DNA from: Macrostomum lignano
Lineage: Eukaryota
Direction of reading: 5' to 3'
Assembly (NCBI GenBank): GCA_002269645.1
Contig: NIVC01001429.1
Span: forward strand, 1-56,275
DNA: 56,275 bases
A program made the position numbers and the translations under genes. This document shows positions 18,311 through 21,300 of the stretch, piece after piece. The notes beneath the pieces are model-generated. The model worked only from the letters and a program-made list of their open reading frames with translations, had not been told where the DNA came from and did not search any database. Positions within the stretch are counted from its first letter, which is position 1. Each line of letters starts with the position of its first letter.

Positions 18311-21300
18311 ATGACAACGGCAACTGAATCAGAGGCTGACCTGTTGGAGAGCACTCGATCGGAAACAGTTCCGTTGTTGTCGGACGATTTGCACCATCTG
18401 TACGGATCTTCAACAACAAGACGGCGAGGCCTGCTTGGTAAGAAGCTGTTTCGCGGTCGCTGCAGTAATTGCTGCAACTCCTGCTGCAGCGAGCCAACGA
18501 TGGTAGCGCTGAAGCACCGAGCCGGGAGTTTGTTCCTGCTGCTGTTTCCGTTCTATTCCTTGGTCACTGGCGGAAGCTACTCAAGCAAAGCTCTGGTGTC
18601 GGACCTGCTCGCCGGGTTAACAATGAGCGTCTTTCACATACCGCAAGGCCTAGCCTATGGCTTACTGGCCGGTCTAAGACCCATCAACGGCCTGTACACT
18701 TCGCTGATACCCGTGGCTCTCTACTCTCTGCTAGGGAGGTCACGTCACTTATCGCTAGGCACTTTCTCGCTGACCTCGCTGCTGCTAGCGGACATGATCG
18801 GGACGACCTATCGTCAGTACATGGACCAGCTTCCAGGCTCTAACAGCACCATAATTAATTGCTCTTTATACTCAGAGGTTGATGAGATCAATCTAAATGC
18901 CGACTGTTCGAGCGACTCCGATGAGTACTACGGAGGACTCACCGTGGAAGAATACGCTAGACTTCAAGTCGCCGTTTTAGGCAGTTTTGCGGCATCAGTA
19001 ATCAACATGGCGCTTGGCACCTTGCAGCTCGGCTTTGTGATGAAGTACGTCTCCAACCCGATGCTTCGCGGCTTTACAACAGCCGCAGCTGTGCACATCT
19101 TCACCAGCCAGGTGCCGATGCTGCTGGGCGTTCAGCCAACTGGCGGCGACAACTTTGTTAAACTGATTGCCAGCTACACCGGAATAATTAACGACATCGC
19201 GTCGACTAACTGGACAACCGTAATCACCTCCGTAGCGTGCATGGTGCCGCTCTACTTAATGAAAGAGTACCTGAATCCGCGCGTCAAAAAGTGCATCAAA
19301 GTTCCACTGCCAGTTGAACTGCTCATCATTTTATCGGCGCTGGTGGCGTCACACGCGTTGCAATTGCAGTCGCACTTCGGCGTTGACGTAGTCGGAACCG
19401 TCCCGAGAGGCTTGCCGCTACCGCTAGTACCAGATTTCTCCTTCATGCCAAACGTCCTGCTCCCGTGCCTGCCTGTTAGTTTAGTCGGCGCGGCCATGTC
19501 CCTGTCTATCGGGAAAATGCACGCCCTGCAGTTTGACTATGAAGTTAATTACAATGGAGAGCTCTTTGTACTTGGAACGTCCAGTCTGTTTGGCAGCTTC
19601 TTCCAGTGCTTCTACGCTACTGGCGCGCTGGCTCGATGCGCTGTGGTGGTCGGAGCGGGCATGAAGTCGCAGGTGGCATCAGCAGTGAGCTGCCTCGTCT
19701 TGCTACTGGTTGTGCTAGCAGTTGGCCCGTTGTTCGAAGCCGTTCCCGAATGCGCTCTGGCCTCCGTCATCGTCGTGTCCTTAGTCGGGTTGTTCAAACA
19801 AGTGACCGATATTCCTAAACTGTGGCGCGAAGCCAAGTACCTGGACTTGAGCACATGGCAGTAGTAGGTAAAACAACGCTTCTAGACCCAGACCACTTTT
19901 TTAACAACCGTTTTAAGGGTCTAGAGGGGGGACACGGGGGGAAATTAAAAAAACACATCTAAACACCCTCCAACACAAAAACACCCTCCAACACCCCCAA
20001 ATAACAAAAATCAATAAAAATCATCCCCAACACTTCGAATTTTCCCCCCTTGTGTCCCCCCTCTAGACCCTTAAAACGGCCATTAAAAAAGGGCTGATCT
20101 AGAAGCGTTGTTTTACCTACTACTACATACACCAACCCCTCGCACGCGCCGCAGGCGCGAAGGGTCTTTTTCTGTTACTAAAAATAGAACAAAAAATGAC
20201 ACACGTTACACATATGCAAAATCTGAATGAATTGCAGGTAGGAGACCCAGTTGAATACCGAGGTGAGGGTCTTTTTGATGTGGTTGGAACAGCAGCAAAC
20301 TTCGTTAAAGATAATATGGGTCTTATAGGGCAAGCAGGCTCCGCAGCAGGTTCTATAACAAATGCTGTAAAAGGAGGAATTGAAGCAGCTAGGGCAGCAG
20401 AAGAACTAAAGAAATTGAGAGAATTTAACGACACCCTCTCACAAATAAATGCAATAAAAGATTTAAAGCTGGCACAAGCCGCACAACCAACAGAAACCCC
20501 CACGAAAAGCACGCCAATAAGTAATAAAGATATTCAGGATTTTAATAAAATGTTAACCACAATTAAAGGCGGAAAAGGATTAAAAAAATTTTAACAATAT
20601 AAAAATGGACTCAGTTAATGACGAAAAACGGCTATATTTTATAGGAGAAATTGTAGACACTTTAGATTTGGATGATAACAAACATAGCCACACAATGTTA
20701 AAAAGATTGGATCGTTTAGGTAAAAAACTTGACTACGATATCGATACATTTAAACTTGCTGCAAAATTTGCACAAGAAGGAAGGCCAATATCCTTTAAGA
20801 ATCGCGGCAGAAATTATAGGCTGACAGACTCCGATGTAAAATTTTTATTGGAGACTCATACTAAAAAAGACGGTGGATTGTTACCTATTTTACCAATTCT
20901 TTTAGGCCTCGGAGCAGCTGGAGCAGCCGGTTTAGCAGGTAAAAGAATTCATGATAACCGAAAACAGTTAGCAGAATTAAAAGCAAAACAGGGAGGCATA
21001 CTTCCACTTGCAACTTTGTTACCAATAATTTTTGCAGGAATAGGAGCAGCTGGTGGAATAGCAGGTGGCGCAGCTGGAATCACAAAAGCAGTAAATGATA
21101 AAAAAGCTGCGGATGAAAAAGCTAAACGAGATGCTGAATTTCAAAGACAGCAAATAACACAGGACGCACAATTCAAACAGAAACTCATTGACACCATTAA
21201 TAGTAGTTCAGCAACAGCAGAGCAAAAAAGAAATGCAGAAGCTAGGTTAGCAGCTGGAAAAGGTTTACTGTTAAATGGCAGCGGGTTGGTACTAAAAGGA

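Follow-up and report, generated by a model that had tools for sequence, protein, structure and literature searches.

Terminal palindromes and a hairpin-priming model are already proposed for the virophages and PLVs of protists. The accessible part of one preprint reports that virophage subtypes 1, 2, 5 and 6 and PLV subtype 4 of Halocafeteria seosinensis carry palindromes in their TIRs beside the TSDs, proposes hairpin priming after excision, and links the palindromes mainly to non-pPolB replication genes (10.64898/2026.07.28.741278). The element described here lies in a 56,275-nt stretch of Macrostomum lignano DNA (the window) and is similar to what that part describes: a related integrated element that encodes an rve integrase and has a palindrome in the TIR next to the TSD. 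However, the Halocafeteria elements reside in a protist host, have 52-nt palindromes in the example given there, were found under a 10-nt gap limit and are preferentially non-pPolB, whereas the window contains a pPolB Polinton of an animal with a 265-nt palindrome, imperfect arms and an 80-nt loop that falls outside that gap limit. The present case is further set apart by its canonical Maverick end motifs, by its recurrence in three clades and by two-sided changes.

The preprint was the single direct precedent returned by our literature search, and an earlier mention in the founding Polinton paper or in Repbase is possible. The terms 'palindrom' and 'hairpin' were absent from the main text of two Polinton surveys (PMC8097293, PMC8502044), the portions of their supplements covered contained no terminal sequences, and nothing further on terminal palindromes was found in the sections covered of four other sources (PMC11296320, PMC8363768, PMC6431247 and 10.1101/2022.07.28.501842). 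The first-pass annotation of this DNA had allowed that the architecture might be routine in described Polintons; palindromes with hairpin priming are indeed published for virophages and PLVs, but in the literature searched and in our sample the architecture is not routine in Polintons. The usual Polinton model invokes a panhandle between the two TIRs, whereas the window element would fold back within each TIR.

Similar designs occur in more distant systems. In the typical telomeres of Streptomyces (Tpg/Tap), a terminal-protein system, the first bases of the ~300-nt single-stranded 3' end are complementary to an internal palindrome, according to the part of the source covered (PMC4513846). Streptomyces differs in that a number of short palindromes take the place of one long stem, an internal origin is combined with end patching instead of strand displacement, and there is no integrase. 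The likeness is architectural and does not imply homology. The termini of parvoviruses, including AAV, and the flip-flop telomeres of poxviruses are imperfect palindromes able to self-prime, and their resolution depends on an HUH Rep nickase or a Holliday-junction resolvase. In contrast, no ORF for a resolving enzyme was identified in the window element and no flip/flop was seen (n = 2 ends). The mismatches of the vaccinia hairpin are functional, as the part of that study consulted reports (PMC8956199). The ends of bidnaviruses, which are derived from Polinton TIRs, are stated in the available text not to form hairpins (PMC4061559). Casposons, which are likewise self-synthesising, differ in their short TIRs (median 56 nt) and their Cas1 integrase; some casposon TIRs contain internal palindromes, and the part of the source covered does not describe a full inverted terminus (PMC4046053).

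The Polinton and its insertion site

A 17,831-bp element occupies positions 19860–37690 of the window, with (AGT)2 and (ACT)2 at its two ends and a GC content of about 0.27–0.38, compared with 0.43–0.53 in the flanks. The whole element is enclosed by a perfect 6-bp TSD, CATGGC (19854–19859 and 37691–37696, + strand), the left copy of which lies inside the coding sequence of a host gene of the SLC26 (sulfate permease) family. This coding sequence (18311–19859, + strand) is interrupted by the element, and its frame picks up again after 37696, beyond the right TSD. It matched the Pfam SLC26 model (E 7.6e-90) and a named Macrostomum lignano protein (100%), and the insertion site is uninterrupted both in an M. 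lignano protein of 94% identity and in a 48% paralogue. The contig also carries an 8-kb inverted duplication with 99.96% identity.

The N-terminal piece of a protein-primed family B polymerase gene (21669–22343, + strand) is split from the next ORF (22395–25610, + strand). Among 8000 scored sequences the polymerase had 5755 matches at E <= 0.001, the best of them about 55% identical; several carried PF03175 and one was named DNA-directed DNA polymerase. The window polymerase protein, from a gene that is split in the assembly, matched no polymerase model in Pfam. A retroviral-like (rve) integrase (35572–36381, + strand) gave a Pfam rve match of E 1.1e-7 at 32.5 bits, against a cut-off of 32.6, and its matches include a named Maverick integrase P0076. 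On the – strand, a putative A32-like packaging ATPase in two ORFs (31408–32108) has a visible Walker A motif and weak Pox_A32 matches, both below cut-off (E 0.007 and 0.01), and a major capsid protein (MCP) is likewise encoded in two ORFs (32145–33638). The C-terminal piece of the MCP models as a jelly roll resembling double-jelly-roll MCPs: the predicted structure (pLDDT 71.6; one jelly roll modelled) matched an iridovirus MCP in Foldseek (E 1.3e-5), and the top six rows in VIA were all double-jelly-roll capsids (Z 8.1–9.6, rmsd 3.1–4.5, 113–159 aligned). Two further – strand ORFs encode a probable adenain-type cysteine protease (29880–30323), assigned by eye from its His/Asp/Gln/Cys order, and a probable minor capsid protein (30543–31328), assigned from position and size; neither candidate had a match in Pfam or the PDB. 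Among the 26 related loci longer than 4 kb described below, similar ORFs were found in 5 for the protease and in 2 (L020 and L029) for the minor capsid protein.

A sequence search of the PDB with the polymerase, capsid and protease proteins returned only an endonuclease-VII-like finger and zinc fingers, and a search of a phage collection gave no polymerase match and only chance DNA matches. No HUH/Rep nickase matched any of the 20 element ORFs (E <= 0.01), 12 of which lacked any Pfam match and might include a divergent one. In the assembly, the genes for polymerase, ATPase and capsid each fall into two ORFs, through either sequencing error or decay. Vertebrate Mavericks have (AGT)2//(ACT)2, (AG)3 or (AC)3A as end motifs and TIRs of 46–1447 bp, according to the portion of the survey consulted (PMC8097293). 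The end motif, the 6-bp TSD and the TIR length of the 17,831-bp element agree with this survey, and its pPolB, rve integrase, capsid and putative ATPase are those of Polintons/Mavericks (adintoviruses, polintoviruses). The element is a Polinton.

Palindromic cassettes within the TIRs

Copies of a 20-nt terminal motif stand at four sites of the window and no others: 19860 (+), 20124 (–), 37425 (+) and 37690 (–). The inner copies are inverted and lie 265 nt (left) and 266 nt (right) inboard of the termini, which confirms the first-pass annotation in its claim that each TIR holds a second, inverted terminus in a cassette of ~265 bp at both ends. The left cassette (19860–20124, 265 nt) is an imperfect palindrome from terminus to terminus, made up of an outer arm that is the true terminus (19860–19949, +), an unpaired loop of 80 nt (19950–20029, +) and an inner arm that is the inverted copy of the terminus and stops exactly on the end motif (20030–20124, –). 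The right cassette (37425–37690, 266 nt, –) and the left one have the same orientation with respect to their termini. The alignment of the outer with the inner arm spans about 90 columns, longer than first stated, and the arms differ in a short middle block exactly as had been claimed. On the + strand the loop, correctly described as A/C-rich, has no G and consists of 41 A, 30 C and 9 T; on the 3'-terminal strand it is rich in G and T and lacks C. The outer arms had been called identical; this holds for the first 79 nt of the two ends, after which the right end has one additional base. Two small indels are the sole differences between the left TIR (19860–20185, 326 bp, +) and the right TIR (37362–37690, 329 bp, –). 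The cassette accounts for ~80% of the TIR length, and the TIR extends ~61 bp beyond the inner arm, with a small GC-rich stem-loop in this inboard part (20145–20159) that is mirrored at the right end; inverted symmetry thus persists inboard of the cassette.

As single-stranded DNA, the left end is predicted to fold at –88.7 kcal/mol on the + strand (z –17.4) and at –91.3 kcal/mol on the – strand (z –16.5), and 0 of 100 shuffles were equally stable. The score of the head against its inverted copy was 27 at each window end, whereas at random positions it reached 19 in 0 of 1469 cases, with a maximum of 16.5. In the predicted folds the last base of the terminus is paired, which would place the 3'-OH on a template. 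Both ends of the window element were in one orientation, and no flip/flop was seen between them (n = 2 ends).

An assembly artefact is an extremely improbable origin of this design. The assembly may carry errors, because it contains the 8-kb inverted duplication (99.96%) and three split Polinton genes; against this, the two arms show the same differences from each other at both ends, which lie 17 kb from one another, the two TSD copies match perfectly, and the design is present in independent contigs from three other assemblies (see below).

The cassette had also been read as a 265-bp mini-element able to excise autonomously, or as part of a composite transposon with four usable integrase-type ends. 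The end motif does stand at both extremities of the cassette, and a free copy would resemble a minimal linear replicon. However, the 6 nt flanking the cassette are not duplicated at either end, and no solo cassette was found in the 56 kb of the window or among the 38 related loci. The suggestion of four integrase-type ends is unsupported: retroviral-type integrases act on free ends, and the inner copies are continuous DNA. Two independent IS-like modules would also not produce the inverted symmetry that continues for 61 bp inboard. We therefore regard a mini-element or composite transposon as very improbable. An inserted MITE was likewise rejected, as the cassette has no TSD of its own.

Hairpins at the ends of related elements

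Relatives were collected by scanning GTDB contigs with a polymerase alignment, which yielded 38 loci with 31–50% identity. From their gene sets and flanks, we infer that these loci are eukaryotic Polintons misplaced in bacterial and archaeal bins. Both termini were visible in none of the 38, so that the TSD evidence concerns the window element. Wherever one of the three published motifs stood in these loci, the sequence up to 800 nt away was scored for an inverted copy. Six of 623 motif occurrences in the 38 loci passed this screen, and they represent three hairpins, each read from both sides. The hairpin of L003 (5614–5742, 129 nt) starts with AGTAGT 279 nt upstream of the polymerase start; those of L013 (6182–6340, 159 nt) and L034 (2544–2647, 104 nt) start with (AC)3A, 225 nt and 175 nt upstream of the polymerase start, respectively. 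All three are located just upstream of the polymerase at the transition from an ORF-poor flank to the element, and the sequence similarity between L013 and L034 starts at the hairpin. The fold z-scores of the 3'-terminal strand were –13.7 (L003), –23.8 (L013) and –8.1 (L034), and the stems of L013 and L003 are paired nearly to the apex. The hairpins share no common sequence or length (104–266 nt), but their architecture is alike, and in 4 of 4 elements, the window element included, the inner arm ends exactly at the end motif.

A candidate left end was found in 7 of the 38 loci, 3 of which have the hairpin; the other 31 had no identifiable end. The four candidate left ends without a hairpin (L006, L008, L011 and L027) scored 7.5–9. 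The motif TTCTG is common to L006, L008, L013 and L034 at position 21–22, and this sharing supports the termini of L006 and L008 as true. The hairpin is optional, since neither of these two sisters has it at its supported terminus (with a 100-N gap at 200–299 in L008). The starts of L011 and L027 are uncertain, and L027, counted as negative, has a sub-terminal hairpin of ~56 nt (z –3.4) that excludes the first bases. Other fold-backs were set aside: a 278-nt foldback in L012 was rejected as a hairpin end, being an insertion with an 8-bp duplication within the polymerase gene, and hairpins in L016, L020, L026, L029 and L007 were not counted, as their first bases are no end motif or their position is outside an identifiable terminus. 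The protein-primed phages phi29, PRD1, Bam35c, Cp-1 and GA-1 had no such hairpin (5 of 5; scores 7–9). The fold-back terminus is recurrent and optional, and it is not a general requirement of protein priming.

In a quickly built polymerase tree of 47 rows, with no bootstrap and with L005, L037 and L038 omitted as too short, the window element, L003 and L013/L034 fell into three separate starred clades, and L006 grouped with L013/L034 (support 91). The hairpin label did not cluster significantly on the tree (98 of 500 shuffles were as low). We propose that the hairpin was gained or lost between sister elements.

Comparison of L013 with L034 showed that 7 of 25 outer-stem pairs had changed on both sides and that 49 of 50 cells pair, a level matched by 6 of 500 shuffles; this count comes from two sequences, and the stem structure was drawn from those same two. 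The loops of L013 and L034 differ. In addition, G.T pairs were confined to one strand. The 3'-terminal strand has three G.T pairs per end in the window element, five in L003 and two in L034, while the 5'-terminal strand has none, and L013 has none on either strand. The 3'-terminal strand was also the more stable one in L003 (–42.2 vs –33.3) and L034 (–35.0 vs –29.4), and the gap was < 1.5 kcal/mol in the window element and L013. One polarity was thus seen in 3 of 3 informative elements, which has a probability of 1 in 8 by chance and is weak evidence either way. Because the G.T pairs are one-stranded and both window ends are oriented alike, the sequences hint that the folding strand may be the 3'-terminal one and that the ends are not free to flip.

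The hairpins could be neutral scars, left when a broken or nascent strand folded and copied its own terminus in the manner of copy-back defective genomes, with template switching keeping the arms alike and no function involved. Their patchy distribution over three clades of the polymerase tree fits such an origin, as do their different sequences and lengths and the inverted copies of the same short motif in L006, which has no hairpin; accidental annealing after single-strand breaks is also the alternative given in the part of the Halocafeteria preprint covered (10.64898/2026.07.28.741278). What argues against a scar is that the inner arm halts exactly at the end motif in all four elements, that the design outlived replacement of the loop and seven stem-pair changes between L013 and L034, and that wobble pairs are confined to one strand. 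Long palindromes, moreover, are usually lost unless maintained. On balance, we consider a neutral scar somewhat unlikely.

A palindrome acting in duplex DNA or in RNA, as paired binding sites, as a cruciform for the integrase or as a hairpin transcript, has a very small probability in our view. Short motifs occur in both orientations within the TIRs of the L013/L034/L006 group, a cruciform would put the end motif at the junction, and G.U wobble in RNA is better tolerated than G.T in DNA. However, the boundaries match the DNA terminus to the base, and Rfam returned generic miRNA-hairpin matches alone, far under the cut-off (38 vs 135 bits). Pairing almost to the apex in L013 and L003 is also more than paired protein-binding sites need.

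Possible replication from a folded end

The reading we favour is that the cassette is the Polinton's own fold-back end, which would self-prime replication without terminal protein; on the sequence evidence, we give it a probability of roughly 45%. The starting form would be a single-stranded genome, either a strand looped out of the chromosome, with no terminal protein, or a displaced strand. Its 3'-terminal arm would pair with the inner arm, so that the recessed 3'-OH sits on a template and the whole genome forms the 5' overhang of the folded end. The strand-displacing polymerase of the element would then extend this 3'-OH, giving a duplex with one end closed and the other blunt, and protein priming could start in the ordinary way from the blunt end. 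The hairpin would thus shield the 3' end and launch replication independently of terminal protein, and later rounds would be protein-primed at the (AGT)2 motif. Folding back would also let either arm be copied from the other, so that the arms stay complementary.

Several observations are consistent with self-priming. In the window, the first base of the element is also that of the hairpin, and the first bases of the L003, L013 and L034 hairpins are the published motifs (AGT)2 and (AC)3A. In phi29, a 3'-recessed end is a good primer and 5'-overhang origins are poor for protein priming, according to the part of that work covered (PMC4150772); self-priming is favoured because the geometry of the fold-back is that of this good-primer, poor-protein-priming end. 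Fold-back extension of the 3' end of a Streptomyces telomere has been observed in vitro, as reported in the portion consulted (PMC4513846). The first-pass annotation had suggested that single-stranded ends fold into terminal hairpins that act as origins. Its fold-back part gains support from the recurrence, the co-variation of the arms and the one-strand wobble, whereas the role as origin or primer is what we infer.

Other observations weigh against self-priming. Polintons manage without the hairpin, as 4 of 7 candidate ends are negative. The two-sided changes can arise by arm-to-arm copying, with no selection needed. The energy difference between the strands is small in the window element and L013. 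The weakest step is the reopening of the closed end: read-through yields an inverted dimer that shares one cassette and requires resolution, and no Rep-type nickase was identified among the ORFs scanned. Simple resolution predicts flip/flop ends, whereas a single polarity was seen, which is weak evidence either way. Furthermore, the palindromes in the covered part of the Halocafeteria preprint are mostly in elements without pPolB (10.64898/2026.07.28.741278).

The fold-back might instead act as a local duplex origin that replaces the panhandle and presents the 3' motif to the polymerase–terminal-protein complex, with a fixed orientation and no dimer. Polarity is fixed at all informative ends and the end motif for protein priming is retained, as this reading would have it. 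In the parts of the sources covered, the duplex origin of phi29 is stronger than the single-stranded one (PMC4150772), the first 13 nt of Streptomyces telomeres are complementary to an internal palindrome and their filling-in is protein-primed (PMC4513846), and direct evidence for the panhandle is described as lacking even for PRD1 and adenovirus (PMC11886824). However, phi29 origins with a non-template overhang are markedly less active in that same account (PMC4150772), and the overhang here would be the whole genome; the five protein-primed phages without such a hairpin also speak against it. We consider a local duplex origin unlikely.

Self-priming could further be one half of a two-mode cycle, in which a strand free of terminal protein would self-prime and the integrase of the element would nick past the outward-facing motifs of the palindromic junction. 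We regard this extension as quite unlikely. If it were true, a single cassette would combine the roles of primer, site of dimer resolution and integration end, the missing step from provirus to free protein-primed genome would be supplied, and a DDE integrase would carry out a parvovirus-like terminal resolution.

What is new here is the recurrence of terminal palindromes in pPolB-encoding Polintons with animal-type end motifs, while the supplements of the Halocafeteria preprint may list pPolB cases. A pattern known from mostly non-pPolB virophages and PLVs is thereby extended to pPolB elements. For annotation, pipelines that find TIRs can mistake the inner motif for the end of the element. 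The recurrence of the fold-back in three clades, together with sister elements that lack the hairpin, provides a natural comparison, and flip/flop isomers, inverted dimers, solo cassettes and a strand bias of wobble pairs are the predictions to which it leads. The issue that a self-priming end would address is how an integrated Polinton without terminal protein re-enters protein-primed replication.

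Terminal motifs and the left cassette of the Polinton

Near the termini of four related-polymerase loci in GTDB contigs, which belong to one polymerase clade, we found a TTCTG motif at positions 21-26 from the terminus, its distance to the end being fixed. The motif was kept regardless of the end motif used, both in the two loci with a hairpin end (L013 and L034) and in the two sister ends without one (L006 and L008), and inverted copies of it were present deeper inside from the termini of this clade. TTCTG is named here as a candidate origin- or integrase-binding site.

Next to the left cassette of the Polinton, the ACT repeat runs on for two more bases directly inboard of the inner arm (20125-20131), and this segment matches the published Maverick end motif (AC)3A at 6 of 7 positions. 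No such segment was seen inboard of the inner arm in the three loci with a hairpin end (L003, L013 and L034). The segment could be an older terminus or bases trimmed at integration. The loop (19950-20029) is C-free on the - strand, which is the 3'-terminal strand, carries four G-runs of 3-5 there and is telomere-like in base make-up.

Integrase region and putative fibre protein

A PF08398 domain is fused to the integrase in many of the closest relatives of the window integrase (P0001-P0025), and it was absent from the window integrase ORF itself (35572-36381). Two related Polinton loci, L026 (12840-14709 and 20752-22603) and L025 (9912-11397 and 17426-18919), carry inverted copies of the integrase region ~6 kb apart, which points either to very long TIRs or to a head-to-head arrangement. 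Within the Polinton, a 662-aa ORF contains 7.3 copies of a 57-bp repeat (29305-29722) together with an F5/8 type C domain, and probably encodes a fibre-like receptor-binding protein.

Host genes and the inverted duplication

The annotated SLC26 protein P0241 spans the Polinton by treating the element as an intron (18311-19859 joined to 37691-37980). No GT-AG or GC-AG ends were found for such an intron in any register, and the bridging probably stems from a gene model that reflects an allele without the insertion. A second sulfate-permease ORF (14283-15080, - strand), opposite in orientation to the interrupted one, lies close to a THAP ORF (16126-16539) and near 23-, 28- and 37-bp tandem arrays. 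Further out, an inverted, nearly identical gene pair of this flatworm (17-592 and 1047-1626) matches Pfam Ifi-6-16, the interferon-induced 6-16 family, just below the cut-off (E 3e-6 and 4e-6).

An 8-kb inverted duplication (39281-47285 and 48265-56268; 99.96% identity, 0 mismatches, 3 gaps) with a ~1 kb spacer reaches the contig end, and its content occurs again at 2563-6137 and 9290-11024. This is either a giant palindrome of very recent origin or a fold-back produced by the assembly.

Polinton contigs in GTDB genomes

The 38 related-polymerase loci lie on Polinton-bearing contigs in many GTDB species-representative MAGs, eight of the loci coming from a single bin. These contigs are apparently eukaryotic, and such eukaryotic-looking Polinton contigs in species-representative MAGs are a contamination to be aware of.
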